Shown: in pieces, positions 3,861-63,297 of the stretch | How the letters are laid out: each line of letters starts with the position of its first letter | How positions within the stretch are numbered: the first letter of the stretch is position 1 | DNA from: an uncultured Acidobacteriota bacterium | Lineage (GTDB): Bacteria; Acidobacteriota; Polarisedimenticolia; Polarisedimenticolales; DASRJG01 | Assembly (NCBI GenBank): GCA_964383585.1 | Contig: CAYLHQ010000012.1 | Coordinates: 36,714 to 100,713, forward strand | DNA: 64,000 bases | Reading direction: 5' to 3' | The notes under the pieces: model-generated | Database searches by the model: none | The model's input: the letters and a program-made list of their open reading frames with translations, nothing else | Told to the model about the DNA's origin: nothing | Translations under genes and position numbers: made by a program

Positions 3861-5119
3861 GCCCCCGCGGACGCAGCGTTCTCGTCGTCGTCTCGCTCGC
3901 CGTCCTCGTCGCCGTCGTCGCCCTCGCGTGGCTTACCCCGCGCGGGACGGCACAGCACCACGGTTCGGCGACGCAGTTCCACTGCCCGATGCATCCGCAG
4001 GTCGTGCAGGACCGCCCGGGGAAGTGCCCGATCTGCGCGATGGGTCTCGTTCCGGCCTCGCGAGTCGAAACCGAAGTGCCGCACGAGGGCGCGCACGGCC
4101 CGAAAGGGCTCGCGCGCGTGCGTCTGACGGAGGCGAAGGCGCGCCGGATCGGCGCGCGGTCGGTGCCGGTCGAACCCGCCCGCTTCGACCGGGTCGTGCG
4201 CGCCGCGGGAAACGTCGCGATCGACGAGACCCGCCTGCGGCAGGTCCACACGAAGACGGCGGGATGGGTGGAGAGGTTGTGGGCGAACGCGGTGGGAGAG
4301 CCCGTCCGACGCGGCGCGCCCCTCCTCGCGATCTACAGCCCCGAGCTGCTCGCCGCGCAGGAAGAGTTCCTCGTCGCGCTCCGGGCGAACGAGCGGCTCG
4401 CGGCGAGCGGCTCCGAGGAGGTTGCCGCTTCGGGGGACTCCCTCCTCGCCGCCGCGCGCAGCCGGCTGCGCCTGCTCGACATGACCGAGGACGAGATCGC
4501 GGCCCTGGAGAAGACGGGGGTTGCGTCCCGCACCGTCGTCGTTCCGTCCCCCCTCTCGGGGACGATCCTCTCGCGCGGCATCGCCGAAGGGGCGCGCGTC
4601 GAACCGGGGACGATGCTCCTCGAGGTCGCGGACCTCTCGAAGGTCTGGGTGCTCGCCTCCGTCTACGAGTACGAGTTGCCGTTCGTCCGGGAAGGCCAGG
4701 AGGCGTCGATGACCCTCCCTTACCTTCCGGGGCGCGAACATCGGGGGAAGGTGGCGAAGGTCTATCCGACCCTCGACTCGGCGACGCGGACCGCGACCGT
4801 GCGGATCGAGTTCACGAACCCGGACGGGTCGCTCAAGCCGGAGATGTACGCCGAGGTCCGCCTCGTCGCCGACCTCGGGGAGAGGCTCGCCGTCCCGACG
4901 GGGGCGGTGATGGAGACGGGAACGCGGAGCGTCGTGTTCGTCGACGAGGGGGACGGCGTCTTCACGCCGCGCGAGATCGCGGTCGGCCTCCGTCTTCCGG
5001 ACCGGGTCGAGGTGCTCTCCGGGCTCGAGCGTGGAGAACGGGTCCTCGCGGAGGGGAACTTCTTCGTCGATTCGGAGTCGAGGCTCCGCGCCGGGCTCGA
5101 GGCCGCGGCGGAGCGATGA
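3857..5119 (+). CDS. cusB: RND efflux membrane fusion protein, CusB-like, with an N-terminal heavy-metal-binding domain
   Basis: One TM helix is followed by FHCPMHPQVVQDRPGKCPICAMGL (the YHCPMHP...CPxCGM metal-binding motif). A barrel-sandwich/beta-barrel MFP body follows. ATGA overlaps occur at both ends (3857 and 5116). Confidence 0.85.
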   Translation: MSPRGRSVLVVVSLAVLVAVVALAWLTPRGTAQHHGSATQFHCPMHPQVVQDRPGKCPICAMGLVPASRVETEVPHEGAHGPKGLARVRLTEAKARRIGARSVPVEPARFDRVVRAAGNVAIDETRLRQVHTKTAGWVERLWANAVGEPVRRGAPLLAIYSPELLAAQEEFLVALRANERLAASGSEEVAASGDSLLAAARSRLRLLDMTEDEIAALEKTGVASRTVVVPSPLSGTILSRGIAEGARVEPGTMLLEVADLSKVWVLASVYEYELPFVREGQEASMTLPYLPGREHRGKVAKVYPTLDSATRTATVRIEFTNPDGSLKPEMYAEVRLVADLGERLAVPTGAVMETGTRSVVFVDEGDGVFTPREIAVGLRLPDRVEVLSGLERGERVLAEGNFFVDSESRLRAGLEAAAER

Positions 5120-8100: not shown

Positions 8101-8409
8101 AGGATGCGGAACCACCACGACCTTCGGGAGGCGATCGTCCACGGGGCCGTGAAGCGGATCCGGCCGAAGATGATGACCGTCCTCGCCGCCTTCGTGGGTC
8201 TCCTCCCGATCATGCTCTCCCAGGGGACCGGCTCCGACATGATGAAGCGCGTCGTCGCGCCGATGATCGGCGGCCTCGTCACGTCGTTCGTGCTGGAACT
8301 ACTCGTCTACCCGCCGCTCTACGAGATGTGGAAGCGGCAAAGGGGACATTCCGGTTTTTCTTTCCATTCTTCAAGCAGCGGTGAACCTCAGATCGCCGGG
8401 GCGCCTTGA
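5116..8409 (+). CDS. cusA: CusA/CzcA-family heavy-metal RND efflux pump
   Basis: The product reads co-linearly with E. coli CusA as I recall it: MIERIIDFS...DAIPDLSDTQVIVFSKW...DPYWARSRVLEYL...LGPDATGVGWVYQYAL...EGTLLYMPTTLPGIS. The last ~22 aa (RGHSGFSFHSSSSGEPQIAGAP) are encoded by the palindromic repeat at 8341-8439. Confidence 0.92.
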   Translation: MIERIIDFSARHRLLVLMLTVVAVLFAVRAMREVPLDAIPDLSDTQVIVFSKWDRSPDIVEDQVTYPIVTSLLGAPGVKSIRGFSDYGFSYVYVIFDDGTDPYWARSRVLEYLSEILPRLPAGVTTELGPDATGVGWVYQYALVDPEGRHDPADLRSFQDWTLRYWLQGVEGVAEIASFGGYQRQYQITLRPEALLARNVTVPQVVEAIRKGNDEVGARVLELSGAEYMVRARGYARSIEDFENLVVTADARGVPVLVRDVARVGVGPDMRRGIGDLDGRGDVAGGIVVMRHGENALRVIERVKARLDDVRGSLPEGVEIVATYDRSELIERSIDVLKKELILAMVVVSLVVLLFLWHVPSAIVPIVTIPVSVCLAFIPMWGMGITSNIMSLAGIAISIGVLVDGAIIEVENAYNKIHRWQAAGGKGDFHEVRLEALKEVGPAVFFSLLVITVSFLPVFTLVDQEGRLFKPLAYTKTLTMALAAVLATTLDPAMRMLFARIEPFRFRPRVLSKAASGLFVGRYRAEEDHPISRRLIRWYEPVCRLVLDWPRATIAIALALLLSTIPVYFSLGSEFMPPLDEGTLLYMPTTLPGISVAEAAAMLEETGRLIAEVPEVASVHGKAGRADSATDPAPLSMIETVVVLKPRSEWRSVERFYSGFPDWMKAPFRLVWRDRISREELVADLDRRVRLPGVTNSWTMPIRTRIDMLTTGIRTPVGIKILGPDLGEIERLGSEIESVVAGLSGTRSVFAERTAGGYFLDFDLKREALARYGIAVADAQMVLMAAVGGETVTTTIEGRERYTVSVQYPRELRDNVEALRRVLVPASSGVQIPLEQIADLRFSTGPGMIRNENGLLAGYVYVDISESNVGGYVARAKEAVAQAVSFPPGYTAVWSGQYENMLRVRERLKLVIPLTLFLIFLILYMNTRSVVKTGIVLLAVPFSLVGAVWFLWLLDYNVSIAVWVGMIALMGLDAETGVFMLLFLDLSYEQAVREGRMRNHHDLREAIVHGAVKRIRPKMMTVLAAFVGLLPIMLSQGTGSDMMKRVVAPMIGGLVTSFVLELLVYPPLYEMWKRQRGHSGFSFHSSSSGEPQIAGAP

Positions 8410-8439
8410 AGTATTGGAACAAAAAGCGGAATGTCCCCT
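8341..8439. repeat. AT-rich imperfect palindrome, AGGGGACATTCCG(C/G)TTTTT family; likely hairpin/terminator
   Basis: The left arm AGGGGACATTCCGGTTTTTCTTTCCATTCTTCAAG (8341-8375) pairs with the reverse complement of 8405-8439, AGGGGACATTCCGCTTTTTGTTCCAATACTTCAAG. The first 22 nt of the reverse complement of the right arm (AGGGGACATTCCGCTTTTTGTT) are identical to the outer arms of the 46778-46952 palindrome; the left arm has two substitutions in that stretch. Confidence 0.7.
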
Positions 8440-13633: not shown

Positions 13634-13663
13634 TCCGCCGACGATGGAGGAGGAGCCGACCCG

Positions 13664-15937
13664 ATGACGACACGGACCGAAACGTTCACCTACGACGACG
13701 CCATCGTCCGGAAGTTTCTGCTCGCCACCCTGGTCTGGGGGGCGGTGGGGATGCTGGTGGGCGTCCTGGTCGCCATCCAGCTCGCCTTCCCGGCGGCGAA
13801 CCTGGGTCTCCCTTGGACTTCCTTCGGACGTCTGAGGCCGCTCCACACGAACGCGGTGATCTTCGCGTTCGCCGGAAACGCGATGTTCACCGGCATGTAC
13901 TACTCGACCCAGCGCCTGCTCAAGACCCGGATGTTCTCGGACCTCCTGAGCTCGCTCCACTTCTGGGGCTGGCAGGCGATCATCGTCGCCGCCGCCGTGA
14001 CGCTTCCCTTGGGTTTCACGACCTCGAAGGAGTACGCCGAGCTCGAGTGGCCGATCGACGTCGCGATCGCCCTCGTCTGGGTGATCTTCGCCGTCAACTT
14101 CTTCGGAACCCTGGCCCGGCGCCGGGAGCGCCACATTTACGTCGCCATCTGGTTCTACATCGCCACCATCCTCACGATCGCGCTCCTCCACATCTTCAAC
14201 AGCCTCGAGGTCCCGGCGAGCCTCTGGAAGAGCTATTCGGTCTACGCGGGGGTCCAGGACGCGTTCATGCAGTGGTGGTACGGCCACAACGCGGTCGCGT
14301 TTTTCCTGACCACCCCCTTCCTCGGCCTCATGTACTACTTCATGCCGAAGGCCGCCGACCGCCCCGTCTTCTCCTACAAACTCTCGATCCTCCACTTCTG
14401 GTCGCTGATCTTCATCTACATCTGGGCGGGCCCCCACCACCTCCACTACACCGCCCTCCCCTCGTGGGCCGCGACGCTCGGGATGCTCTTCTCGCTGATG
14501 CTTTGGATGCCCTCGTGGGGCGGCATGGTGAACGGCCTGCTGACCCTCCGGGGCGCCTGGCACAAGGTCGCCGACGACGCGATCCTGAAGTTCTTCGTCG
14601 TGGCGATCACGTTCTACGGGATGTCGACCTTCGAGGGGCCGCTCCTTTCGATCAAGAGCGTCAACTCGCTCTCGCACTACACCGACTGGACGATCGCCCA
14701 CGTGCACGGCGGCGCGCTCGGCTGGGTCGGGTTCATGACCTTCGGCATGGCGTATTGGCTCATGCCGCGTCTCTTCCAGACGAAACTCTGGAGCAACCGT
14801 CTCATGGAGATCCACTTCTGGACCTCCACGGTCGGGATTCTCCTCTACGTGCTCCCGATCTACGCGGCCGGGCTGACGCAGGGGCTCATGTGGCGCGCGT
14901 TCGACGAGACGGGTCGCCTGGCCTACGGCGACTTCATCGAGACGACGATGCGCCTCATCCCGATGTACTGGTTCCGCGTGCTCGGTGGGGTCTTCTACCT
15001 CTCCGGCACGGTCCTGTGCATCGTGAACCTCGCGAAAACCTGGGGTTCCCGGCCTTCGCGGTACGAAGTGCCGGTCCACGAGGCCCCCGCCCTCTCCCCC
15101 GAGTACACGGACCCGTCGCCGGTTGCGTCCTACCTGCGGCGCGTCAAGGCCCCGGTCGCCGGTCTCGCCTACACGATCGAGCGGTTCGTCGACGCGACCT
15201 GGCACCGCCGCTGGGAGCGCCTCCCCCTCGTCTTCAGCGCGTGGGTAGCCGTCGCGGTCGTCGTGGCCTCGCTCTTCGAGATCATCCCGACCTTCCTGAT
15301 CCGGTCGAACGTGCCGACGATCGCCTCCGTGAAGCCGTACACCCCGCTCGAGGTCGTCGGGCGCGACCTCTACATCGCCGAGGGGTGCAACAACTGCCAC
15401 TCGCAGATGGTTCGGCCGATCCGCGCCGAAACGGTCCGCTACGGCGAGTACGGGAAGCCCGGGGAGTTCGTGTACGAGCACCCGTTCCTGTGGGGATCGC
15501 GCCGCATCGGACCCGACCTCCAGCGGGTCGGCGGGAAGTACCCGAACCTCTGGCACGTCCGCCACATGGAGAATCCGCGCTCGACCACGCCGCAGTCGAT
15601 CATGCCGCCGTATCCGTGGATGCTCACCGAGCGGATCGATTTCGAGGGGATCCCCGTGAAGCTGCGTGCGATGCGCACCGTCGGGGTTCCCTACACCGAG
15701 GCCGACGTCGCAGGAGCCGCGGCGTCGGCCCGCGAACAGGCGCGCGCGATCGCGGAGGACGTCGCCGCCCAGGGCGGCGCTCCGGGGCTCGAGGACAAGA
15801 AGATCGTCGCCTTGGTCGCCTACCTCCAGCGGCTCGGCCAAGACATCAAGGCCGTTCCACCCCCCGGCGCGCCGGCCGAAGCCGCACCCGCGATCGCCTC
15901 CGCCGGGAGCGGCGGGGGCTCCGGAGGGGACAGGTGA
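13664..15937 (+). CDS. ccoNO: cbb3-type cytochrome c oxidase, fused subunits I and II (CcoN-CcoO)
   Basis: A single 757-aa ORF. The CcoN part has 12+ TM helices and His ligands (HFWSLIFIYIWAGPHHLHY, HVHGGALGW). A ~50-aa linker follows, then CcoO with a TM anchor and heme motif CNNCHSQMVRP. Confidence 0.92.
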   Translation: MTTRTETFTYDDAIVRKFLLATLVWGAVGMLVGVLVAIQLAFPAANLGLPWTSFGRLRPLHTNAVIFAFAGNAMFTGMYYSTQRLLKTRMFSDLLSSLHFWGWQAIIVAAAVTLPLGFTTSKEYAELEWPIDVAIALVWVIFAVNFFGTLARRRERHIYVAIWFYIATILTIALLHIFNSLEVPASLWKSYSVYAGVQDAFMQWWYGHNAVAFFLTTPFLGLMYYFMPKAADRPVFSYKLSILHFWSLIFIYIWAGPHHLHYTALPSWAATLGMLFSLMLWMPSWGGMVNGLLTLRGAWHKVADDAILKFFVVAITFYGMSTFEGPLLSIKSVNSLSHYTDWTIAHVHGGALGWVGFMTFGMAYWLMPRLFQTKLWSNRLMEIHFWTSTVGILLYVLPIYAAGLTQGLMWRAFDETGRLAYGDFIETTMRLIPMYWFRVLGGVFYLSGTVLCIVNLAKTWGSRPSRYEVPVHEAPALSPEYTDPSPVASYLRRVKAPVAGLAYTIERFVDATWHRRWERLPLVFSAWVAVAVVVASLFEIIPTFLIRSNVPTIASVKPYTPLEVVGRDLYIAEGCNNCHSQMVRPIRAETVRYGEYGKPGEFVYEHPFLWGSRRIGPDLQRVGGKYPNLWHVRHMENPRSTTPQSIMPPYPWMLTERIDFEGIPVKLRAMRTVGVPYTEADVAGAAASAREQARAIAEDVAAQGGAPGLEDKKIVALVAYLQRLGQDIKAVPPPGAPAEAAPAIASAGSGGGSGGDR

Positions 15938-21814: not shown

Positions 21815-21948
21815 GCGTGATGTTCATCCTCCTCCCGGCCTCCCTGCTCTTCGCCCTGGGCGCGGTCCTCGTGTTCCTTTGGGCGGCCCGCTCCGGGCAG
21901 TACGACGACGTCGAGACCCCCGCCTCCCGCATCCTCGATGATGAATAG
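21811..21948 (+). CDS. ccoS: cbb3 oxidase maturation protein CcoS/FixS
   Basis: GTG 21811 overlaps the ccoI stop (GTGA). The translation (V)SVMFILLPASLLFALGAVLVFLWAARSGQYDDVETPASRILDDE matches the CcoS pattern. Confidence 0.7.
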   Translation: MSVMFILLPASLLFALGAVLVFLWAARSGQYDDVETPASRILDDE

Positions 21949-22010
21949 GGGACAGGTTACTCGTTTGTCGCAAAAAGGGACTTCTTGCGACAAATGAGTA
22001 ACCTGTCCCC
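21948..22010. repeat. palindrome GGGGACAGGTTACTCGTTTGTCGCAA / TTGCGACAAATGAGTAACCTGTCCCC (hairpin directly after ccoS)
   Basis: 26-bp arms (21948-21973 and 21985-22010) with one mismatch and an 11-nt loop. It starts on the last base of the ccoS stop codon. It shares the GGGGACA start with the other palindromes, and no U-tract follows it. Confidence 0.65.
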
Positions 22011-22014
22011 GAAT

Positions 22015-32895: not shown

Positions 32896-33198
32896 ATGAA
32901 GATAGCACCGGGGGTTTCCGCGCGGAAACCGAGTTCGGGCAACCTGCGAGCGTCGAATTTTCGGAAGCACGACGTCACGTTCGAGGAGGCGATGAGTGCC
33001 TTCGGAGACCCACTGTCCGTCACCGTTGAAGACCCCGATCACGGGGACGGAGAGCCTCGTTTTCTCCTTCTGGGACTATCTTACGCAGGACGTCTGCTGG
33101 TGGTCTCTCATACGGAGCGCGGCGAATCGGTTCGCATCATCAACGCGCGGCAGGCCAGTCGCAGAGAGAGGACGATCTATGAAGAAGCGGAGGAATGA
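32896..33198 (+). CDS. BrnT-like (DUF497) ribonuclease toxin
   Basis: ...NFRKHDVTFEEAMSAFGDPLSVTVEDPDHGDGEPRFLLLGLSYAGRLLVVSHTERGESVRIINARQASRRERTIYEE follows the BrnT pattern (KHG-V-x-F-x-EA ... E-x-R ... RIISAR-x-A). The N-terminus is atypical. Confidence 0.7.
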   Translation: MKIAPGVSARKPSSGNLRASNFRKHDVTFEEAMSAFGDPLSVTVEDPDHGDGEPRFLLLGLSYAGRLLVVSHTERGESVRIINARQASRRERTIYEEAEE

Positions 33199-33424
33199 GG
33201 TTCGAGAACCAGACATGCGGGCCGAGTACGACTTCCGCGGCGGAGTCCGCGGGAAGTACGCAGCTCGCTTCGCCGCCGGGACCAACATCGTCGTGCTCGA
33301 CCCGGACGTCGCAGCCCGCTTCCCCGATTCACGAACCGTCAACGAAGCGCTGCGCGCGCTGGTCGCTGTCGCCGATCGCAGGGTGAGTCGGCGGTCGAAA
33401 CCACGCGCGAGTTCAAAGCGGTGA
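33179..33424 (+). CDS. putative antitoxin (BrnA-position protein, 81 aa)
   Basis: It overlaps the BrnT-like gene by 20 nt. The motif MRAEYDFRGGVRGKYAARF...VVLDPDVAARFPDSRTVNEALRAL is common in small antitoxin-like proteins paired with BrnT-type toxins (recalled from memory). Confidence 0.55.
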   Translation: MKKRRNEVREPDMRAEYDFRGGVRGKYAARFAAGTNIVVLDPDVAARFPDSRTVNEALRALVAVADRRVSRRSKPRASSKR

Positions 33425-33936
33425 TCCCACCGGCCCCCGCGATCGAGCGCCTCTCGCAACCCGTGAATGCCGACGACCTCCGTGCGCGCGCCGCACTCCT
33501 CCTCGACGCCGTCGCGTCCGGCGCGGCGGAGAGCTTTCTCGCCACGCTCACGCTCGAGCAGGCCGAAGACTGGTGGCGGAAGACACTTCGAGAAGCCCAC
33601 TCCTCCGCGATCGTCTTCGCCGCCCGCGATGCGGGCTCGATCGTCGGAACCGTGCAGATGCACCCCGCCTGGGCGCCGAACCAACCGCACCGCGCGGAGA
33701 TCGCGAAGCTCCTGGTACACCGGAGCCGGCGGGGCGAAGGCCTCGGGACCCGCCTCATGCACGCGATCGAGGGCGAAGCGGCGCGCGCCGGGTTCCGGCT
33801 TCTCACGCTCGACGCGAAGCGCGGCGCGGAGGCGGAGCGCCTCTACCGCAAACTCGGGTGGATCCACGCGGGGACGATCCCCGACTTCGCCCTCGATCCC
33901 GACGGGGTCACCCCGCACGACGCGGTGGTGTTCTAG
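33421..33936 (+). CDS. GNAT-family N-acetyltransferase
   Basis: GTG 33421 overlaps the upstream stop (GTGA). The acetyl-CoA-binding motif is LLVHRSRRGEGLGTRLMHAIEGEAARAGFRLLTLD. The product is 171 aa. Confidence 0.85.
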   Translation: MIPPAPAIERLSQPVNADDLRARAALLLDAVASGAAESFLATLTLEQAEDWWRKTLREAHSSAIVFAARDAGSIVGTVQMHPAWAPNQPHRAEIAKLLVHRSRRGEGLGTRLMHAIEGEAARAGFRLLTLDAKRGAEAERLYRKLGWIHAGTIPDFALDPDGVTPHDAVVF

Positions 33937-34003
33937 AAGCGACTCCCGTCCGCCCCTCTCGGCGGGTGAGGTGTACGATGTCGGCGCTTCCGGAGGAGTC
34001 CGA

Positions 34004-34393
34004 GTGAATCGATGGCCGGACTGGTGGGCGCAGGCCGAGCGGGATCTGGCACACGCTCGCCATGCCCTCGAGGACGCCGACCATGAGTGGGCGTGCTTCG
34101 CGGCGCAACAGGGGGCGGAGAAGGCCCTCAAGTCGCTCGTCCTCGCCCTCGGGGGCGAGCCCTGGGGTCATTCGGTCCTCGCGCTCGTGGAGGCCCTACC
34201 CGAGTCCGTCGGGCGGACCGAAGCGACGACGGACGCCGCGAGCCGACTCGACAAGCACTACATCCCGACCCGCTATCCGAACGGTTTCGACGCGGGCTTC
34301 CCCGGGAAGCTCTACACCCGCGGCGAGGCCGTCGCGGCGATCGAGGACGGGGAGCACATCCTTGCGTTCTGCAGGCGCCATCTACCTCGATAG
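34004..34393 (+). CDS. HEPN domain protein
   Basis: GTG 34004 follows GGAGGAG. The sequence WWAQAERDLAHARHALEDADHEWACFAAQQGAEKALKSL...LDKHYIPTRYPNGF is typical of HEPN proteins from HEPN/MNT pairs. Confidence 0.75.
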   Translation: MNRWPDWWAQAERDLAHARHALEDADHEWACFAAQQGAEKALKSLVLALGGEPWGHSVLALVEALPESVGRTEATTDAASRLDKHYIPTRYPNGFDAGFPGKLYTRGEAVAAIEDGEHILAFCRRHLPR

Positions 34394-34712
34394 GCCACGC
34401 CGGATCGAGGAACTGCGCGACGCGGCCCGCCGTCTCGCGACACGCCGCCCGGAAGTCCAGCGCGTGATCCTCTACGGCTCCCTCGCCCGCGGTACGGCGA
34501 CGCCCCGCTCCGACGCCGATCTTCTCGTGGTGGTCCGGGAGAGCGTCCATGGGAGCCTCCGCGACCGGATCCCGGAGATCTTGCTCGCCCTGTCTCCGCT
34601 TCCCTGTCCGGTCGATCTGCACGTTCTCACCGTCGCGGAATTCGACCAAGGCGTCGAGGAGCGAAACCCCCTCGTCCGGGAAGCGCGAGAGGGGGGAATC
34701 GCGCTGATCTAA
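34362..34712 (+). CDS. MNT-type nucleotidyltransferase domain protein
   Basis: ILYGSLARGTATPRSDADLLVVV is the GSxxRG...DxD minimal NTase motif. The only in-frame start I can find is TTG 34362 (GGGGAG lies upstream), which overlaps the HEPN gene by 32 nt. Confidence 0.7.
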   Translation: MRSAGAIYLDRPRRIEELRDAARRLATRRPEVQRVILYGSLARGTATPRSDADLLVVVRESVHGSLRDRIPEILLALSPLPCPVDLHVLTVAEFDQGVEERNPLVREAREGGIALI

Positions 34713-39629: not shown

Positions 39630-40439
39630 GTGCCCGAGACCACGTACAACGCGACGCTGATCGGCCGCGAAGACCTCCACGCGCACCTTCGGATCTTCCG
39701 AGTCCGTCCGGACGCCGACCTCTTCGACTTCGAGCCGGGGCAGTACTCGGTTCTCGGCCTCCTCGGCGGCGAGCCGAGGGTCCCCGAGGCAGACCCCGAA
39801 GAGCCTCCGCCTCCCGCCGGCGCGATGATCCGGCGCGCCTACAGCATCGCATCGTCGAGCCTCGAGCGCGGTTACGTCGAGTTCTTCGTGAACCTCGTGA
39901 CGAGCGGAAGCCTCACCCCACGTCTCTTCGCGCTGCCTCGCGGCGGGCGGATCTGGCTCGGGCCGAAGGCGACGGGGATGTTCACGCTCGACCGGGTGTC
40001 GCCGGGGCGGGCGGTCGTGCTCGTCGCGACGGGAACGGGGCTCGCTCCGTACGTCTCGATGCTGAGGACCATGCTCGTGCGCGAAACGGCGCGGCGGTTC
40101 GTCGTCCTGCACGGGGCGCGCTACTCGTGGGACCTCGGATATCGCGGAGAGCTCGAAAGCCTCTCGAGGCTTCGCACGAACCTCACCTACATCCCGTCGA
40201 TCACGCGGCCCGAGCGCGATCCTCACTTCACCGGCGCCGTGGGGCGCGTGCAAGCGCTCCTCGACCAGGGGATCGTCGAGAAGGAGACGGGTGTTCTTCT
40301 CGACCCCGCGCGGACCGAGGTCTTCCTCTGCGGAAACCCGGACATGATCCGGGACGCGAAGGCGATGCTCGTCGGGCGCGGCTTCGTCCCCGACAAGGGG
40401 CGCGAGGCGGGAACGCTGCACGTCGAGGAATATTGGTAG
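39630..40439 (+). CDS. ferredoxin-NADP(+) reductase (Fpr-type)
   Basis: GTG 39630 follows GGAGGAGGG. FAD-binding motif RRAYSIAS and NAD(P)-binding motif VVLVATGTGLAPY are present. The C-terminus ...HVEEYW is typical of bacterial subclass I FNR. Confidence 0.8.
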   Translation: MPETTYNATLIGREDLHAHLRIFRVRPDADLFDFEPGQYSVLGLLGGEPRVPEADPEEPPPPAGAMIRRAYSIASSSLERGYVEFFVNLVTSGSLTPRLFALPRGGRIWLGPKATGMFTLDRVSPGRAVVLVATGTGLAPYVSMLRTMLVRETARRFVVLHGARYSWDLGYRGELESLSRLRTNLTYIPSITRPERDPHFTGAVGRVQALLDQGIVEKETGVLLDPARTEVFLCGNPDMIRDAKAMLVGRGFVPDKGREAGTLHVEEYW

Positions 40440-40440
40440 G

Positions 40441-40526
40441 AAAAGGGGACTGGCACCTTTTCCGGTCGCCGGAAAAGGTGCCAGTCCCCTTTTTCACACC
40501 GGAAAAAGTGCCAGTCCCCTTTTTCA
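40441..40526. repeat. AT-rich perfect palindrome (GGGGACTGGCACCTTTTCC family) plus a tandem extra half-copy; likely bidirectional terminator
   Basis: AAAAGGGGACTGGCACCTTTTCCGG (40441-40465) pairs with CCGGAAAAGGTGCCAGTCCCCTTTT (40469-40493). A second right-arm copy, CCGGAAAAAGTGCCAGTCCCCTTTTT, lies at 40499-40524. The element lies in the ~100-bp gap between the convergent stops of fpr (40439) and the TonB-dependent receptor (40539). Confidence 0.75.
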
Positions 40527-40538
40527 CAGTCCCCATTC

Positions 40539-42611
40539 TCACCACCCCCATTTCGTCACGAGCCGCACCGACCGGCTCTCCATCGGGTGGAAGTGGACGT
40601 CCTCCACCCCCTCCTCCGGTTCCCCGGGGAGGCGCGAGGCGTAGAAGTACTCGATATCGCTGTCGTCCCGGTCGAAGAGGTTGAAAACCTCGACCGCGAG
40701 CGACACGTCGCGCGCGAACCGCCATCCGGCTCGGAGCGACGCGAGGGATGTCGAGCCCGAGCGGACCGAGCCGTCCTCGATCAGCGGGCGCGGACCGAAG
40801 TAGCGCCACCGGATCGCACCGAAAAACCCGCGTGGGGAATCGAACGCCGCTCCCGCCGACACGGCCGAGGTCAGCGCCCCGGGGATGAACTCCCCGGCCG
40901 AATCGTCGTCGGTGAAACGGCCGCGGGTCCACGCGGCGTCGAGCTCGAGGGTGAGCCAGGGAGCGGGCCGCCAGTGATTGGCGATCTCGACGCCCGTGCG
41001 CCGGCTCGGCCGGCTCGCCTCGGTCCCGCCCGCGTCCCCGACGAAGAGAAGTTCCGAGTCGAGCTCTAGGACGAAGAACGTGACGCTCGTCTGCAGCCCA
41101 TCGAGTGCGGAGGTACGAAACCCGACGTCGGCCCCGGTCGCGCGCACCAGGGGATCGACCGGCTCGGCGGGCTCGCCCGAACGCGGATCGACCCGGATCG
41201 TCGCGCCCCGCGCGTCGTTGCTGTGGTAGCCGGCGCCGAGATTGACGTAGACCTCGGTGCGAGACCACGGCCCGAAGACGAGCGAGAGTTTCGGACTCAG
41301 GAGAGAGTCCGACCGGCTCCCGGAGTTCTCCGCCAAGTCGCTCGAGACGTCGGCCCGGAACACGTCGGCCCGGAGGCCGGCGCGGGTCCGGAACCAGGCG
41401 TTCCACTCGATTTCCGCGTCCACGAACGCGGCGCCGAGAAGTTGCTCGACGTCGTCGGCGCGGACCGTGTCCCGAATTGCGCCGCCTGCGGTATCGAAGA
41501 GGCCGTTGTCGATGAAATCCGCACGCGCGTCGAGGCCCCAGTTCCACCGAACGGCGCGTCCGCCCGGACCCGCGACGTACCCTCGCGCGAATCGCGCGCC
41601 GAGGGCTGTTCGGCGGTCCCTCTGAAGGAACTCGTCTCCTTCCGCCGGGTCGTCGAGGAAGTAGGTGAAGTTCGAGAGGAGGTCGAGGGAGTAGCGGAGG
41701 ACGTACCCCGAAAGCGTCGTCGTCGAGCCGACGTTCCGGGTCCGCCAGGACGCGGAGAGGCTGTACCGCCCCGATTCCCCGCCGAGATCGTCGTCGAGTG
41801 AGCCGAAACGGCCGACGAGCCCCTGCTCGACGGCGCGCCTCGGGATCTGGTCGGTCGCGTCCCACTCCCCGTCGTACGCCATCGCGGTCACCGTGAGCCC
41901 ACGGTCGGCCTCCCCCCGCGTCCAGCGGACGACGCCGTTCCAGCGACGGAAGTCGTCGGGGCGCTCCCACGGGCCGTCGTAGTGGGAGAACTCGACCGCG
42001 CCGAGGACGGTCCCTTCGCCGATCGGGAGCGAGCCCGCCGCGAGCGCGCGCGCGTAGTCGTCGGTCCCGGCGACGAGATCCACGATCGGCCGATCGAGCG
42101 CGCGGACGAGATCGAAATCGACCGATCCGGCTGCCGAGAAGTCCCCCACCTCCGCCCAGTACGGCCCCTTCCGGAACCGCGCGCGCTCGACGAGTTCCGG
42201 GATGACGAAGTTGAGGTCGGCGTATCCCTGGCCGTGGGCGTGCGTCGGGAGGTTCACCTGCATCCCGTCGAGCGTCACGTGAAAGTCGGTGCCGTGGTCC
42301 AGGTTGAACCCGCGCAGGAAGTACTGGTTTCCCTTTCCGCCCCCGCTGTGCTGCGTTGCGATCGTCCCGGGAACGGTTTCGACCAGTTCCCCGGGGCGCA
42401 GAAGGGGTCTCCGTGCGAGGTCTTCCTTGCCGGTCACCCCCTCGGAGCCCGAGGTCGCGATCCCGACAAGATCGTCGGCCCGGGCCGTGACCTCCACGTC
42501 CTCCGGTGTTTCGGGAGCCGGGAGGGGTTCTTCGCTTCTCGTTTCCTCCTGTGCGAAAAGACAGACGGAGCAGGCCATGGCGAGCGCCATCGAAGTGGCC
42601 GCCGTTTTCAT
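40539..42611 (-). CDS. TonB-dependent outer membrane receptor
   Basis: Signal peptide MKTAATSMALAMACSVCLFAQ. The plug domain reads ...PGTIATQHSGGGKGNQYFLRGFNLDHGTDF... A long beta-barrel ends in the aromatic C-terminus ...VTKWGW. ATG 42641 is an alternative start. Confidence 0.85.
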   Translation of the reverse strand: MKTAATSMALAMACSVCLFAQEETRSEEPLPAPETPEDVEVTARADDLVGIATSGSEGVTGKEDLARRPLLRPGELVETVPGTIATQHSGGGKGNQYFLRGFNLDHGTDFHVTLDGMQVNLPTHAHGQGYADLNFVIPELVERARFRKGPYWAEVGDFSAAGSVDFDLVRALDRPIVDLVAGTDDYARALAAGSLPIGEGTVLGAVEFSHYDGPWERPDDFRRWNGVVRWTRGEADRGLTVTAMAYDGEWDATDQIPRRAVEQGLVGRFGSLDDDLGGESGRYSLSASWRTRNVGSTTTLSGYVLRYSLDLLSNFTYFLDDPAEGDEFLQRDRRTALGARFARGYVAGPGGRAVRWNWGLDARADFIDNGLFDTAGGAIRDTVRADDVEQLLGAAFVDAEIEWNAWFRTRAGLRADVFRADVSSDLAENSGSRSDSLLSPKLSLVFGPWSRTEVYVNLGAGYHSNDARGATIRVDPRSGEPAEPVDPLVRATGADVGFRTSALDGLQTSVTFFVLELDSELLFVGDAGGTEASRPSRRTGVEIANHWRPAPWLTLELDAAWTRGRFTDDDSAGEFIPGALTSAVSAGAAFDSPRGFFGAIRWRYFGPRPLIEDGSVRSGSTSLASLRAGWRFARDVSLAVEVFNLFDRDDSDIEYFYASRLPGEPEEGVEDVHFHPMESRSVRLVTKWGW

Positions 42612-42687: not shown

Positions 42688-43161
42688 TCAGGAAGGTGGG
42701 GCGCGGGGAGATCGGTGGAGGGCGAGCGGGACGCCACCCGGCCGAAACAGAACCGTCGGAGTTGCAATCGAGAGTGGGCGTTCCGGAGGCGTGGCCCCCG
42801 TGTCCTCGAAGCCGGATTCTCCCGGGGGCGCCGCGCCCGGAAGGAAGCGTGCGGACTTGCGGGGGTCGTCCCGGTCTGCGGGGGGCGACCAGGGATCGGG
42901 CCTCCCCTCGTCGAAGCCGCCGCGATCGGCGTGAGTGTGACCGGCGCCTCCGTGCTCATGGAACCCGAGATGGAGGTGGTCGTGGACGACGTGCGCGGAG
43001 CCGTTCCGGTGATGGTGGGGACGATCTTCACCCGTTGCACCCAGCCAGAAGAGACAAACGAACCCGAGCAAACCCGAGACGCTCCGCTCGGGGAAAAAAT
43101 GGGGACTGGCACCTTTTCCGAAGACCCTCCCGGAAAAGGTGCCAGTCCCCATTTCTCTCAT
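42688..43161 (-). CDS. hypothetical His-rich protein (start uncertain)
   Basis: The ORF has high GC3 by eye. It encodes a hydrophobic segment (LLGFVCLFWLGATG) followed by HHHRNGSAHVVHDHLHLGFHEHGGAGHTH. ATG 43161 overlaps the upstream stop (ATGA) but would put the 43099-43152 palindrome inside the coding region. The next in-frame start is TTG 43071. Confidence 0.35.
   Translation of the reverse strand: MREMGTGTFSGRVFGKGASPHFFPERSVSGLLGFVCLFWLGATGEDRPHHHRNGSAHVVHDHLHLGFHEHGGAGHTHADRGGFDEGRPDPWSPPADRDDPRKSARFLPGAAPPGESGFEDTGATPPERPLSIATPTVLFRPGGVPLALHRSPRAPPS
43099..43152. repeat. perfect palindrome of the GGGGACTGGCACCTTTTCC family
   Basis: ATGGGGACTGGCACCTTTTCCG (43099-43120) pairs perfectly with CGGAAAAGGTGCCAGTCCCCAT (43131-43152). 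It starts 6 nt downstream of the sulfatase-like gene stop. Confidence 0.75.
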
Positions 43162-45336: not shown

Positions 45337-46779
45337 ATGGAAATCTTGGCGGTCCTTCTCCTCGTCGTCTCGGCGATCATCCTGTTCGCCACCGAAGCGC
45401 TGCGCGTGGACGTGGTGGCGATCCTCATCCTGGTGGCCCTCGCCCTCTCCGGTCTCATCGCTCCCGAGGAGGCGCTTTCCGGGTTCTCCAATCCCGCGAC
45501 GGCAACCGTCGCCGCGATGTTCGTCCTCTCCGCCGGACTCCGTCACACCGGGCTCGTGGACGCCTTCGCGGACGGGGTCGATGCGCTGCTCGGCCGGAGC
45601 GCGATTCTCGTGACGCTCGGTCTCATGATCGCCGTCGGTCTCGTCTCCGCGTTCATCAACAACACGGCTGCAGTCGCGGTCCTGATCCCGATCGTGATCG
45701 GACTTTGCAGGCGCCATGCCTGGTCCCCGTCCCGCTTCCTGATGCCCCTCTCGTTCATGGGGCAGATCGGCGGCGTGTGCACCCTCGTCGGGACCTCGAC
45801 GAACATCCTCGTCTCGGACATCGCGCGGCGGTCCGGGATGGAACCGTTCGGGATGTTCGAGTTCTCCGCGCTCGGCCTTTGCTTCGCCGGCGTTGGCTTC
45901 GTGTACCTCGCCCTGGTGCCGTCGTTGCTGCTCCGGAGGAACGGCGACGCCCCTCCGCAGCCGCTCGCGGCCCGCTACGAGCTGGGCCAGTACCTCACCG
46001 AGATCGAAGTGGGACCGGATTCCGAGCTCGTCGGACAGCGGCTCGCCGACACACAGATCGGTGAACGCCTCGGCCTCGAGGTCCTCGAAGTGATCCGGGG
46101 AGGGAGACCGGTCTGGATTCCCGCTCCGGAACAGGGTCTCGAGGCAGGCGACGTGCTCGTCGCGCGTGCTCCGATCTCGAACCTTCTCGACGCCCAGCAG
46201 GCGATGGGGCTCCGCTTCAAGCGGAACATCGAGATGAGCGAGTCGCGACTGCAGGGTTCGGGAGTCGTCCTCGTCGAGGCGCTGGTCGCGCCGGATTCTC
46301 GACTTGTCGGGAAGACGCTCCAGGAGGCCCAGTTCCGGAGGAGGTACCGCTGCCAGGCAATCGCGATCCGCCACCACGACCGGCTCGAGGCCGGAACGAT
46401 CGGGAAGGTCCGGCTCGCGGTCGGCGACGTCCTGCTGCTTCAGGGGTACCGCCGGGACATCGAGGCGCTCGCCGCCGGTCTCGCAGTGTTGACTCTCGAG
46501 GAGATCGCGGCGCCCGAGGTCCCATGGCTCAACAAGGGGCTCGCCGTCGGCGCAATCTCGGGAGCCGTCGCGTTCGCGACGCTCGGCGTGGCGCCGATCC
46601 TCGTGACCGCCATGGCAGCCGCCGCGTTCCTCGTCATCGCGCGCGTGCTGACGATCGAGCAGGCCTACCAGGCGATCGATTGGAAGGTGATCTTCCTCCT
46701 CGCCGGGGTGATCCCTCTCGGGATCGCGCTCGAGAGCAACGGGGCGGCCGGGCTCCTCTCTCGGGGGGTGATGTTTTAG
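45337..46779 (+). CDS. SLC13/DASS-family permease with two TrkA-C domains, apparently C-terminally truncated
   Basis: The N-terminal transport half is ~205 aa, followed by two TrkA-C-like domains (...GQRLADTQIGERLGLEVLEVIRGG..., ...GKTLQEAQFRRRYRCQAIAIRHHD...). Only ~90 aa of the second transport half remain before TAG 46777-79, which sits on the first bases of the 175-bp palindrome. Confidence 0.75.
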   Translation: MEILAVLLLVVSAIILFATEALRVDVVAILILVALALSGLIAPEEALSGFSNPATATVAAMFVLSAGLRHTGLVDAFADGVDALLGRSAILVTLGLMIAVGLVSAFINNTAAVAVLIPIVIGLCRRHAWSPSRFLMPLSFMGQIGGVCTLVGTSTNILVSDIARRSGMEPFGMFEFSALGLCFAGVGFVYLALVPSLLLRRNGDAPPQPLAARYELGQYLTEIEVGPDSELVGQRLADTQIGERLGLEVLEVIRGGRPVWIPAPEQGLEAGDVLVARAPISNLLDAQQAMGLRFKRNIEMSESRLQGSGVVLVEALVAPDSRLVGKTLQEAQFRRRYRCQAIAIRHHDRLEAGTIGKVRLAVGDVLLLQGYRRDIEALAAGLAVLTLEEIAAPEVPWLNKGLAVGAISGAVAFATLGVAPILVTAMAAAAFLVIARVLTIEQAYQAIDWKVIFLLAGVIPLGIALESNGAAGLLSRGVMF

Positions 46780-46952
46780 GGGACATTCCGCTTTTTGTTT
46801 CAGAAACGATAGGGGGGGAAGGGAAAAAGGGGACAGGCACCTTTTCGGGAGAACCTTGCGAAATGAACGCAGCGGCCCTCCCCGAAAAGGTGCCTGTCCC
46901 CTTTTTCCCTTCCCCCCCTATCGTTTCTGAAACAAAAAGCGGAATGTCCCCT
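46778..46952. repeat. ~175-bp composite near-perfect palindrome (both repeat families nested); bidirectional terminator-like
   Basis: The left arm 46778-46850 (AGGGGACATTCCGCTTTTTGTTTCAGAAACGATAGGGGGGGAAGGGAAAAAGGGGACAGGCACCTTTTCGGGAG) is the reverse complement of 46879-46952 apart from one position near the loop. It spans exactly from the permease stop to the ilvE stop. Confidence 0.8.
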
Positions 46953-47832
46953 AAACGGCGACGTACTCGACCTTGACGCCGTCCCGCACGCGCAGGCGGC
47001 GGAAGTCGTCGAGGAGTCGCTTCGTCACGGGCCCGGGCACTCCCGCTCCCACACGGCGTCCGTCCACCGCGATCACGGGGACGATCTCAGCGCCGGTGCC
47101 GGTCATGAAGACCTCCTCGGCGTTGTAGAGATCATGCAACCCCACCACGGTCTCGGCGGTCTTGAAGCCGGCGTCGCGCGCGAGCTCGAGCACCGCGCCT
47201 CGCGTGATCCCCGAAAGCGCCCCCTGCATGGTGTCGGGGGTCTTGACCCAGCCGTCGCTCACGAAGAAGAGGTTGTCGGCGGTGCACTCCGCCACGTACC
47301 CCTGATGGTTGAGCATGATCGCCTCGAGCGCTCCCGACCGCTTGGCGTCGAGCTTGCCGAGGATGTTGTTCAGGTAGTTCAGGGACTTGATCCGCGGGTC
47401 GATCGAGTCGTTCGGGATCCGTCGCACGCTCGCCGTCACGAGCGCGATCCCCTTCTCGTAGAACTCCTTCGGGTAAAGCGCGATCTCGGCGACGATGATC
47501 ACGATGGTCGGCCGCTTGCACTTCGCCGGGTCGATCCCGAGATCCCCGTCTCCACGCGAGACCACGAGCCGGATGTACGCATCCCTCTTCTCGTTGGCGG
47601 CGACGGTGTCGCAGACGGCAGCCGTCATCTCCTCGGGGCTCAGGGGGATCTCGAGCGCGATCGTCTTCGCCGACCGGTACAGACGGTCGATGTGTTCCTT
47701 CAGCCGGAAGACGTTCCCGTCGTAGACCCGGATTCCTTCGAACACGCCGTCCCCGTACAGGAACCCGTGGTCGAACACGGAGACCTTGGCGTCCTCCCTC
47801 GCGTACAGCTTGCCGTCGACGTAGATCTTCAC
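46951..47832 (-). CDS. ilvE: branched-chain amino acid aminotransferase (class IV)
   Basis: (V)KIYVDGKLYAREDAKVSVFDHGFLYGDGVFEGIRVY...IKSLNYLNNILGK... are IlvE signatures. GTG 47832 follows GAGGAGG. Confidence 0.9.
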   Translation of the reverse strand: MKIYVDGKLYAREDAKVSVFDHGFLYGDGVFEGIRVYDGNVFRLKEHIDRLYRSAKTIALEIPLSPEEMTAAVCDTVAANEKRDAYIRLVVSRGDGDLGIDPAKCKRPTIVIIVAEIALYPKEFYEKGIALVTASVRRIPNDSIDPRIKSLNYLNNILGKLDAKRSGALEAIMLNHQGYVAECTADNLFFVSDGWVKTPDTMQGALSGITRGAVLELARDAGFKTAETVVGLHDLYNAEEVFMTGTGAEIVPVIAVDGRRVGAGVPGPVTKRLLDDFRRLRVRDGVKVEYVAV

Positions 47833-62097: not shown

Positions 62098-62792
62098 GCG
62101 TCTTCCTCGTCACCGGGGCGGCGCGCGGGCTCGGCCTCGAGATGGTCCGGCAACTTCTCGAGTCGGGGCACAGGGTCGTTGCCTGCCCCCGTCGCGCCGA
62201 GTCGTGCGGCCTCGACGCCCTTTCGGTCGCCCACGCGTCGGCGCTCTGGATCGTCCCCATGGACGTGACCGACGGGCCCTCGGTGCGGGAGGCGGCACGC
62301 CGGGTCTCGTCGCGCGTTCCCCACCTCGACGTGCTGGTCAACAACGCCGGGGTTCTCCATCGCGGAGAACCTTCGGTCGAGGCGCTCGATTTCTCGGGTC
62401 TCGAAGATGCCTACCGCGTGAACGCCCTCGGGGCGCTCCGCGTCACGGCGGGGTTCCTCCCCCTCCTCCGGAAGGGAGCGGGCAAGAGGATCGTCAACGT
62501 CTCGTCGCTCATGGGCTCGATCGAGGACAATGCGAGCGGCGGCGCCTACGGGTACCGGATGTCCAAGGCGGCGCTCAACATCGCGACGAAGAATCTCGCG
62601 ATCGAGTTGAAGGGCGATGGGTTCGTCGTCGTTGCGATGCACCCGGGGTGGGTCCGCACACGGATGGGAGGGGAACGGGCGCCGCTCGACATCGAGCCCG
62701 CCGTCCGGGAGCTGCTGGCGACCGCCCTCTCGGCCGGACCCGACCGGAGCGGCGGGTTCTACGGCCCGGGAGGAACGAGGTTGCGTTGGTAA
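62094..62792 (+). CDS. short-chain dehydrogenase/reductase (CsgA/C-factor-like subgroup)
   Basis: GTGA overlap with the previous SDR. Motifs are VFLVTGAARGLGLEMVRQL, NNAG and YRMSKAALN. Confidence 0.8.
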   Translation: MSVFLVTGAARGLGLEMVRQLLESGHRVVACPRRAESCGLDALSVAHASALWIVPMDVTDGPSVREAARRVSSRVPHLDVLVNNAGVLHRGEPSVEALDFSGLEDAYRVNALGALRVTAGFLPLLRKGAGKRIVNVSSLMGSIEDNASGGAYGYRMSKAALNIATKNLAIELKGDGFVVVAMHPGWVRTRMGGERAPLDIEPAVRELLATALSAGPDRSGGFYGPGGTRLRW

Positions 62793-62848
62793 GAAAAGGG
62801 GACTGGCACCTTTTCACGGCTGTGAAAAGGTGCCAGTCCCCTTTTCTT
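62791..62848. repeat. perfect 27-bp-arm palindrome of the GGGGACTGGCACCTTTTC family; bidirectional terminator-like
   Basis: AAGAAAAGGGGACTGGCACCTTTTCAC (62791-62817) pairs with GTGAAAAGGTGCCAGTCCCCTTTTCTT (62822-62848) around a 4-nt loop. It fills the entire gap between the convergent stop codons (TAA 62790-92 and TGA complement 62848-50). Confidence 0.8.
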
Positions 62849-63159
62849 CAATACCCGCCGCGGCCGTAGCCGCCGCCGCCGCCCCTGCGGCCGCCACCGC
62901 CACCGCCCTCACGCTCGCGCGCCTCGTTGACGGTCAGCGGACGGCCTCCGTAGTTCGTGCCGTTCAGCGAACGAATCGCCGCGTCGGCCTCGTCCTGACT
63001 CCCCATGTCGACGAAGCCGAACCCGCGCGGCCGGCCGGTGTCGCGGTCGGTGATCAGCTTCACCTCGCGCACCGTACGGCCGTCCTGGGCGAAGAGCGCC
63101 CGAACGTCGTCTTCGGTCGCGTTGAAGGGGAGGTTGCCGACGTAGAGTCTCGTACCCAT
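62848..63159 (-). CDS. RRM-type RNA-binding protein with a Gly/Arg-rich tail
   Basis: MGTRLYVGNLPF (RNP-2) ... RGFGFVDM (RNP-1) ... GGGGGGRRGGGGGYGRGGY. ATG 63159 was chosen because AGGAG lies 9 nt upstream. Confidence 0.85.
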   Translation of the reverse strand: MGTRLYVGNLPFNATEDDVRALFAQDGRTVREVKLITDRDTGRPRGFGFVDMGSQDEADAAIRSLNGTNYGGRPLTVNEAREREGGGGGGRRGGGGGYGRGGY

Positions 63160-63260
63160 CGAACCCATCTCCTGCCGAACGGCCGGGGCGGCCCGTTCAC
63201 CGGCTCGGAGCCTTCCGGCTCCGTCATCCTTCCGCGCCCTCACGCCCCGAGGTGGGGCCG

Positions 63261-63297
63261 AAACGAAAAACGCCGCAAGACCGTTCCTGCGGCGCGC
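63261..63297 (-). terminator. intrinsic terminator-like hairpin plus U-tract between the decarboxylase and RRM genes
   Basis: On the minus strand CGCCGCA-GGAACGGTCT-TGCGGCG is followed by TTTTTCGTTTC. Confidence 0.45.

Follow-up and report, generated by a model that had tools for sequence, protein, structure and literature searches.

This account concerns a family of palindromes that recurs at the ends of genes in a 64-kb stretch of DNA (the whole stretch analysed, called the window below) from an uncultured Acidobacteriota bacterium. Each palindrome is built from two inverted arms with GGGGAC heads, and the main family is called family A. Its core, GGGGACWGGCACCTTTT, is found nine times in the window with at most two mismatches, compared with 0.03 expected from dinucleotide-preserving shuffles. 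The nine arms form four perfect hairpins and one additional right arm. An earlier inspection of the letters, here the sequence-only reading, had proposed that the same arm recurs at four loci, as a dispersed and sequence-conserved family rather than as independently evolved terminators. Both points are supported.

The genes that flank the family-A loci are supported as real by Pfam at every locus. They encode an NAD/FAD oxidoreductase, a TonB-dependent receptor, a sulfatase-TPR protein, an SLC13/CitMHS transporter, a class IV aminotransferase, a short-chain dehydrogenase, and an RRM protein.

The arms are perfect, as had been claimed: a repeat finder returns arms of 24-27 nt at three loci, all 100% complementary. 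The head of an arm is (A)nGGGGAC, not GTAG, and one arm taken by itself has no self-complementarity. The description of the arms as AT-rich holds relative to the window (arm G+C 0.48-0.56, compared with about 69% G+C for the whole window) but not in absolute terms.

Family-A copies are arranged in different ways, including one cluster with an extra arm and one dimer nested in another family. The extra right arm that had been noticed near 40499-40524 is real, and results from a 30-nt tandem duplication that yields an arm at 40498-40523 (96% complementary). The copy described at 46826-46905 is also present, but it is only the inner part of a 181-nt palindrome. The outer arms of that palindrome belong to family B (GGGGACATTCCG, GGGGACATTCCGCTTTTTGTTTC...), which is also found at 8341-8439. 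Besides family A, the window contains two GGGGAC-headed hairpin types, family B and family C. The density in 64 kb is four family-A loci, all dimers, and two loci of other families.

Placement on the stop codons of convergent genes was a further claim. The stop codons have been verified and three of the four loci are convergent, but at 43097-43154 the genes are in tandem, both on the minus strand. At copy 1, the plus-strand oxidoreductase gene (NAD_binding_1 / FAD_binding_6) ends in TAG at 40437-40439 and the arm begins 1 nt later, at 40441; the minus-strand TonB-receptor gene has its stop codon at 40539-40541, beyond the duplication. At copy 2, the TGA of the minus-strand sulfatase-TPR gene (43158-43160) lies 3 nt from the arm end at 43154, and between the hairpin and the likely start of a minus-strand TonB-receptor gene there are about 500 nt of non-coding DNA. 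The palindrome at 62791-62848 fills the gap between two opposing stop codons to the base, just as had been described. The TAA of the plus-strand short-chain dehydrogenase gene (62790-62792) overlaps one of its ends, and the TGA of the minus-strand RRM-protein gene (62848-62850) overlaps the other. At the 181-nt palindrome, the TAG codons of the convergent genes (46777-46779 and 46951-46953) both fall within the outer arms.

Copies are thus found at stop codons or a few nucleotides from them, and can bring a new stop (TA followed by GGGG, TAGGGGAC). The same can be seen at the family-C hairpin, whose first G completes the TAG (21946-21948) of a small open reading frame (ORF) upstream of lepA. 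The family-B hairpin lies just upstream of the tsaD start. A long ORF (3790-8409, 1539 codons, TTG start) crosses the left arm of this hairpin and has its TGA (8407-8409) in the loop region; it is likely a fused or mis-started RND-type efflux gene. Because it reads through the left arm, its last 20 or so codons appear to be derived from the hairpin.

In other genomes, gene context was called by the GC-phase (codon-phase) method. At G+C-rich loci, 15 of 22 facing stop codons lie no more than 10 nt from a GGGG head. Among contexts with both flanks callable, 4 are convergent, 9 are tandem, and none is divergent; these counts, though small, are consistent with placement at gene 3' ends. Length-based gene calling runs ORFs through the hairpins and misassigns contexts.

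In a family-A copy, an A-tract and a T-tract lie on either side of a 25-29-bp stem whose base is rich in G+C, so that each copy resembles a very strong intrinsic terminator for both directions, or a 3'-end stabiliser. The folds range overall from -50 to -71 kcal/mol (z = -8 to -12), with the A-tract paired to the T-tract. Copy 1 folds at -52.9 kcal/mol (z = -10.4), copy 2 at -49.6 / -51.4 kcal/mol, and copy 4 at -52.7 / -51.2 kcal/mol (z about -12). A terminator consensus scan is positive on both strands at 40445-40489 and 62798-62841, and on the minus strand only at 43102-43149, where the T6 tract is restricted to that strand. On each strand, T5 follows the inner hairpin at 46829-46901. The hairpin-plus-U-tract shape expected of each strand is therefore upheld by pattern scan and folding, for the minus strand alone at 43097. 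The A-runs and T-runs said to bracket each hairpin do so at most copies, but at 43097 they are broken up (AAAAAATGGGG / CCCCATTTC). In most lineages the A and T tracts belong to the repeated unit.

Within the window, only family-A copies are strong terminator-like sites. Terminator-like sites outside the elements remain at the level of shuffled sequence (8 vs 9.2, 8 vs 7.1, and 6 non-element sites vs 7.7). As the sole strong terminator-like structures in the 64-kb stretch, the copies could shape operon boundaries. Liang, Rudd and Deutscher are said to have found, in 2015, that repetitive extragenic palindromes (REPs) within about 15 nt of a stop codon lower the expression of the upstream gene in E. 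coli. By analogy, such a stop-proximal effect could also apply to the copies in the window. A separate 11-bp terminator-like hairpin with a T-tract (63270-63295, minus strand) is located just upstream of the RRM gene. That gene (62848-63243), which adjoins the hairpin at 62791, encodes an RNA-binding protein with a Gly-rich tail.

Evidence for mobility is provided by a close relative. The LepA protein of the window, which places the DNA in Acidobacteriota, is 97% identical to that of the metagenome-assembled genome (MAG) GCA_964628935.1, and 87% identical to a "Candidatus Polarisedimenticolaceae" protein. The same MAG is the source of the family-A matches L025, L039, L049, and L095. The comparison covers two syntenic pieces of it (L212 and L213), at about 86-88% DNA identity. 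Positions 21945-22013 of the window, 69 nt that hold the 63-nt hairpin of family C (hairpin C), correspond to 7 nt in L213. Hairpin C is a presence/absence insertion polymorphism between relatives, at a stop codon. The relative's 21 kb of syntenic DNA contain no GGGGAC-headed hairpins. Neither the hairpin C junction nor the outward flanks of the copies give a consistent signal of a target site or duplication. The two toxin-antitoxin-type modules of the window, a BrnT toxin with a small partner ORF and a HEPN protein with a nucleotidyltransferase, are absent at the orthologous position in L213.

Copies also accompany rearrangement. In L212 the gene order is transporter (592 aa), MFS gene, aminotransferase. 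Relative to this order, 1679 nt are missing from the window, comprising the 3' end of the transporter gene and the whole MFS gene, and the 181-nt palindrome is found at the junction. The SLC13/CitMHS transporter (45337-46779) is cut at residue 479-480, at the palindrome edge, with a loss of about 115-120 codons. Its homologues are 590-601 aa long, and a 93%-identical full-length version (601 aa) is found in related strains. The stop codon of the aminotransferase changes from TGA in the relative to the palindrome's TAG in the window.

Three contigs, from NCBI, JGI, and Logan sources, contain the truncated transporter ORF, and a 2.1-kb Logan contig (L114) terminates inside the 181-nt palindrome, which makes a pure assembly artefact unlikely. 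The left edge of the palindrome (GTTT) mirrors the native bases of the right flank (AAAC); together with the identical 75-nt arms, this edge hints at a fold-back or inverted-duplication event. Copies of these repeats nest, duplicate in tandem, and accompany rearrangement.

The family also occurs far outside the window. An exact-pattern scan for the 17-mer, taking one genome per species over 596 Gb, returned at least 113 stretches. Single matches to the 17-mer mean little, since a rough estimate puts the chance expectation in 596 Gb at about 140. Among the matches listed, however, 65 are paired inverted copies, that is, hairpins. The lineages in that list are Planctomycetota (many MAGs), Acidobacteriota, "Deltaproteobacteria" MAGs, Omnitrophota, Acetothermia, Actinomycetota (Solirubrobacteraceae), and Firmicutes, and in several of these other genomes the repeat is multi-copy. 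Paired copies occur in at least five phyla (Planctomycetota, Acidobacteriota, Omnitrophota, Actinomycetota, and Firmicutes). The Firmicutes carriers include a cultured isolate, Desulfoscipio geothermicus DSM 3669, as well as a Clostridium MAG of about 30% G+C.

Because the hairpins come from many lineages, the family is not private to the lineage of the window. A check for the motif in related MAGs had been suggested; GCA_964628935.1 carries it, and the sharing extends across phyla, which is unusual for REP-like repeats. A phage origin is rejected: viral contigs gave only 8 matches, no more than chance by a rough estimate.

About one third of the hairpins elsewhere are asymmetric. They join an arm GGGGACAGGCACC to an arm GGGGACTGGCTCC, so that both A/T positions are flipped on one arm only and two A.A or U.U mismatches result. 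Such hairpins number 28 across phyla, compared with 36 perfect hairpins whose two arms each have A at the two variable positions (among the matches listed). Their orientation relative to transcription is without bias in the few callable cases. Arm asymmetry without orientation bias argues against selection on the RNA hairpin.

The link to an enzyme comes from a Solirubrobacteraceae MAG (L073). Here the repeat GGGGACAGGCACCTTTTT and an inverted AAAAAGGTGCCTGTCCCC, 780 nt apart, enclose one ORF of 243-256 aa. It matches Pfam Y1_Tnp (IS200-like) with E = 2.6e-7 and has a C-terminal helix-turn-helix (HTH) tail. Its motifs are HUH (NHAH), FQ, and RYVALNP, the last of the class 2 Y---NP type. These motifs, the length of about 240 aa, and the HTH tail fit TnpA-Y1 subclass 2.1 (NHxH, FQ, YVxLNP).

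Transposases of this kind have been described as TIRYTs, tyrosine transposases similar to REP-associated tyrosine transposases (RAYTs) that lie between terminal inverted repeats in units called TIRtrons (Di Nocera et al. 2013, BMC Genomics 14:522; PMC3733652). The motif GGGGWSAS is common to many TIRtron repeats, and some of the repeats also exist as dispersed families of moderate abundance, in the form of dimers or clusters (PMC3733652). TIRYTs have been equated with subclass 2.1, the RAYT Group 1 of Bertels (Quentin et al. 2018, PMC6006769). This subclass is the second largest, found in 14.9% of strains, and carries HTH tails (PMC6006769). The L073 protein shares 41% identity (E = 2e-29) with aba2776, a TIRYT of Koribacter versatilis (Di Nocera et al. 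2013 supplement), and only 21% with the E. coli RAYT.

Homologues of the L073 protein, labelled "REP element-mobilizing transposase RayT" by JGI, are mostly found on 1-3-kb contigs. In a metagenome scan with an alignment of L073-type proteins, 80 of roughly 570 detected loci were examined. Among the matches listed, about 55 of the 80 homologue genes lie between inverted repeats of the GGGGTCAGGTCTTG type, with GGGG(T/A)CAG heads. Near-family-A repeats surround two of the homologues (L209 and L132), and GGGACWGTCCC repeats occur at some. In several homologues the downstream repeat holds the transposase gene's own stop codon (TGA in GGTGAC, TAG in CTAGGGG), which mirrors the host stop codons in the palindromes of the window.

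Metagenome assemblies appear to break at the palindromes. N gaps are found at hairpin positions in a MAG (an N-run in L039, and L212:3705-3714). As the palindromes coincide with assembly breaks and most TIRYT genes are on contigs of 1-3 kb, counts of the family from metagenome assemblies are probably too low.

Table 1. Palindromes, repeats, and other features in the window and in matched loci. Positions are those of the window unless a locus (L number) is named.
Feature	Position or locus	Arms and loop	Sequence or remark
Family-A copy 1	40441-40465 / 40469-40493	25 nt, 100% complementary, 3-nt loop	AAAAGGGGACTGGCACCTTTTCCGG; repeat finder
Tandem duplication	40469-40528		30 nt, 2.0 copies, 29/30 identical (96%); right arm + 10 nt flank
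Family-A copy 2	43097-43120 / 43131-43154	24 nt, 100%, 10-nt loop	repeat finder
Nested family-A copy	~46826-46905, hairpin 46829-46901		GGGGACAGGCACC; inside family-B arms of 46775-46955
181-nt perfect palindrome	46775-46849 / 46881-46955	75 nt, 100% complementary, 31-nt loop	
Family-A copy 4	62791-62817 / 62822-62848	27 nt, 100%, 4-nt loop	repeat finder
Family-B hairpin	8341-8439	35 nt, imperfect (86%), 29-nt loop	AGGGGACATTCCGGTTTTTC...
Family-C hairpin	21948-22010	30 nt (93%)	GGGGACAGGTTACTCGTTTGTCGC...
Two toxin-antitoxin-type modules	32911-33435, 33945-34709		comparison with L213
Repeat head at homologue	L123		GGGACGGAGCCCTTGCGTGCA
Repeat head at homologues	L124, L125		GGGGTCTGACCCC
Repeat head at homologues	L127/L128 (Solirubrobacter)		AAAGRGGGACWGTCCCTCTTT
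Repeat head at homologue	L209		AAAAAAGGGGACAGTCACCTTTC
Repeat head at homologues	L210, L211		GCAAAAA-GGGGACGGACCCCT-GCTTGC
Repeat head at homologue	L132		AAAAAGGGGACAGGCCCCTTTTT
Asymmetric hairpin examples	L010:5915-5958, L021:2592-2667, L087:5390-5418, L089:651-695		
Loci with shared loop	L008, L009, L013, L036, L038, L068, L076, L079, L083, L090, L093, L104		GCCGGAACGGCCCTTCGGGTGCTTCGCAC
Collinsella-type loci	L002, L028, L029, L034, L057, L059, L062, L066, L081, L084, L091, L092, L105		

Several other arrangements were seen among the matched genomes. Planctomycetota MAGs from several families share both the arms and a 29-nt loop, which is found in either orientation to the flanks. A Pirellulales MAG contains tandem arrays (L007:4891-5733, period 375 nt, 2.3 copies; L056:4037-4266, period 108 nt, 2.1 copies), in which each unit has two different GGGAC...GTCCC hairpins in series. 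A CRISPR-like array in L087 was considered and rejected; it has just 3 units at about 57-nt spacing and ends in a mini-hairpin. In Collinsella and related MAGs, a single 17-mer is located within the loop of an unrelated hairpin (AACCACCAC...GTGGTGGTT). At six of these loci (L002, L057, L066, L084, L091, and L092) it is upstream of the same gene. They probably represent one orthologous site, possibly a chance match. Elsewhere in the window, an ORF at 13634-15937 is a fused ccoN-ccoO (cbb3 oxidase subunit I and FixO).

The palindromes are interpreted here, with a probability of about two in three, as non-autonomous REP/REPIN-like miniature elements of the TIRYT (Group 1 RAYT) class that double as terminator-like modules at gene ends. 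In this model, each palindrome would consist of two head-out units of the terminal inverted repeat found on either side of transposase genes of the TIRYT clade. The hairpin would have the layout of a TIRtron in which a loop of 3-50 nt takes the place of the transposase gene, with the GGGG heads outward and the tails facing each other. A single-copy TIRYT encoded elsewhere in this genome would act in trans, recognising the GGGGAC-headed stem in single-stranded DNA and copying or moving it, by analogy with IS200/IS605 and TnpA-REP. The host may tolerate the copies or exploit them as gene-end modules.

The sequence-only reading had named a family of REP or BIME (bacterial interspersed mosaic element) type, or a miniature mobile one. 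REP-like mobile elements are indeed suggested by the hairpin C polymorphism and the L073 link, but a GTAG head is lacking and the arms do not form small palindromes of their own. It had also suggested a search for a RAYT or IS200-like Y1 gene. The exact 17/18-mer does flank a Y1_Tnp gene in L073, but tblastn finds no Y1 transposase gene in the 64-kb window.

That absence is one of several points that weigh against the TIRYT interpretation. The TIRtron with the exact match (L073) is from Actinomycetota and has the A variant, not the main T variant of the window, GGGGACTGG. The head GGGGACAG (46829/46901 and 21948/22010) fits GGGGWSAS exactly. The head GGGGACTG of the three main family-A copies departs from this consensus at position 7, and the family-B head GGGGACAT departs from it at position 8. 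The 8-mer itself is not enriched in the window (32 vs 36.8 expected). Since heads miss the consensus and the 8-mer is not enriched, the weight of the argument is carried by the 17/18-mer identity with the L073 repeats and by the near-variants. The junction of hairpin C has about 3 extra nt and no clean target-site duplication. Family-B and family-C hairpins are without T-tracts, so the terminator shape characterises family A and does not extend to the superfamily as a whole. Even for family A, the copies are putative bidirectional terminators, judged by their form. To our knowledge no TIRYT biochemistry exists, and the transposition steps above are drawn by analogy. In published surveys, subclass 2.1 is tabulated as "REP: no" (PMC6006769), and the 16-mers flanking Group 1 genes have about 12 occurrences per genome and were not counted as REP-associated (Bertels et al. 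2017, PMC5581495).

Another model is that the hairpins are mobilised by an enzyme other than a TIRYT. This could be a class 3 TnpA-Y1, a classical IS200/IS605 TnpA, as for palindrome-associated transposable elements (PATEs), or a DDE transposase, as for miniature inverted-repeat transposable elements (MITEs). The model gains from the window having no transposase gene, and from the taxonomic range and high-copy hairpins of class 3 (PMC6006769), which resemble the lineages matched by the 17-mer. It is nevertheless unlikely. The CnGA foot of class 3 is not seen beside the window copies, and in L073 the exact 18-mer flanks a class 2 gene of subclass 2.1 type. The DDE version would leave direct target-site duplications; none is found beside the copies, and the empty site shows an insertion of 63 nt plus about 3 nt. 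An all-against-all BLAST of ORFs from the 113 loci also revealed no further family enriched beside the motif, apart from the orthologous Collinsella loci.

A transposase-free origin is less probable again. In this model, template-switching or fold-back repair, gene conversion, and tandem slippage generate the copies, and selection for terminators keeps them at gene ends. The 100% identical 75-nt arms and the GTTT/AAAC edge do suggest an inverted duplication coupled to the 1679-nt deletion, and the 30-nt tandem duplication also fits. The model leaves unexplained why the same 17-mer occurs at unlinked loci and across phyla, why it also forms the inverted repeats around Y1 transposase genes, and how a 63-nt hairpin came to be cleanly present or absent at a stop codon. 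More likely, template-switching, conversion, and slippage act on copies that already exist.

Least probable is the idea that these are ordinary host intrinsic terminators, or sites of conserved RNA- or DNA-binding proteins, preserved by function and not by mobility: the hairpin with T-tracts on both strands, the placement at gene 3' ends, and a core conserved across phyla, as for a site read by conserved machinery, would all suit it, but no Rfam family matches, about one third of the hairpins elsewhere carry two conserved mismatches without orientation bias, stems of 25-29 bp are far beyond what a terminator needs, and both the insertion polymorphism and the association with transposase genes speak against it.

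The Rfam search gave no match at gathering score in the window, only sub-threshold matches to generic miRNA-precursor hairpins, and nothing relevant in 18 related loci; a literature search for the core sequence returned irrelevant matches only. Other identities for the core were also rejected. As a sigma-54 promoter (TGGCAC-N5-TTGC) it has the TGGCAC, but neither the -12 element nor the spacing fits, and the motif is lost in the W-variants. Mimicry of a Shine-Dalgarno or anti-Shine-Dalgarno sequence (AAAGGTG / CACCTTT) covers part of the core and leaves GGGGACWGG unexplained. A coding reading (AAG GGG ACW GGC ACC TTT = KGTGTF) fails because copies lie after stop codons and in both orientations.

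Within the TIRYT interpretation, some features are less expected: the 17-nt core shared across phyla, the apparent abundance for a Group 1 system, the precision of placement at stop codons, and the conserved asymmetry of the arms. A broader proposal, more tentative and on balance doubtful, is that the GGGGAC palindromes are non-autonomous elements found throughout bacteria and driven by Group 1 RAYTs, which the literature credits with few associated repeats or none. Their 17-nt core would be conserved from Firmicutes to Planctomycetota and Acidobacteriota. The elements would be targeted to stop codons, each bringing its own stop and a bidirectional terminator, and the asymmetry may mark the left and right ends.

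If the broader proposal is true, the elements would be portable gene-end cassettes that remodel the 3' ends of genes, as in the truncation and 1.7-kb deletion described above. Should the TIRYT link prove true of this genome, then abundant repeats are being spread in uncultured Acidobacteriota and Planctomycetota by the RAYT group that is both the largest and the least understood. Abundant Group 1 repeats would contradict the expectation from 16-mer counts in reference genomes. A recognition sequence conserved across phyla would be a ready substrate for the first TIRYT biochemistry. The palindromes also alter gene ends. The possible effect on operon boundaries noted above would arise in a lineage that is otherwise without detectable canonical terminators.

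Repeats that act as sequence-conserved terminators are known from other bacteria. Examples are inverted pairs of DNA uptake sequences and uptake signal sequences (DUS/USS) and Correia elements in Neisseria and Pasteurellaceae, and the TRIT motif in Mycobacterium tuberculosis. Like family A, each is a genome-wide repeat that forms hairpin terminators, often between convergent genes. They differ in having other sequences and in being restricted to their lineages, and there is no evidence for a role of the window family in DNA uptake.

The hairpins of class 3 TnpA-Y1 enzymes offer a second comparison. As in the window, high-copy hairpins in Acidobacteria and Planctomycetes are tied to a Y1 HUH enzyme; class 3 occurs mainly in Planctomycetes, Acidobacteria, and Proteobacteria, and about 600 such hairpins are found in Solibacter usitatus (PMC6006769). 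Class 3 hairpins have a 5' CnGA foot (PMC6006769), whereas the window flanks show no consistent CnGA, and the one linked gene (L073) has class 2 motifs (Y---NP).

Classical REPs, BIMEs, and REPINs (Group 2/3 RAYT; E. coli TnpA-REP, Pseudomonas) are likewise dispersed extragenic palindromes at gene 3' ends, and in REPINs two inverted units form one long hairpin. They are associated with a single-copy domesticated Y1 transposase that is itself flanked by repeats, and roles in termination and mRNA stability have been proposed for them. In contrast to these, the window arms have no GTAG/GTGG head and are not small imperfect palindromes of 20-40 nt. The only linked gene has features of subclass 2.1 and not of the RAYT subclasses 2.2/2.5; it belongs to another RAYT group, as its low identity to the E. 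coli RAYT also shows. REPs are normally species-specific, whereas the core in the window crosses phyla.

The closest known system is that of TIRYTs and TIRtrons. In these, GGGG-headed inverted repeats surround a Y1 gene with an HTH tail, a position that the exact family-A 18-mer takes in L073. In the window as in the published families, repeats are also dispersed as dimers or clusters. The window differs in having no transposase gene, in a main variant one position off the consensus, in a 17-nt cross-phylum core compared with the published 8-nt motif, in a high density, and in copies that lie on stop codons with A/T tracts. The palindromes are thus best filed with the TIRYT / Group 1 RAYT repeat family, which is known but barely studied, and not with classical REP/BIME.

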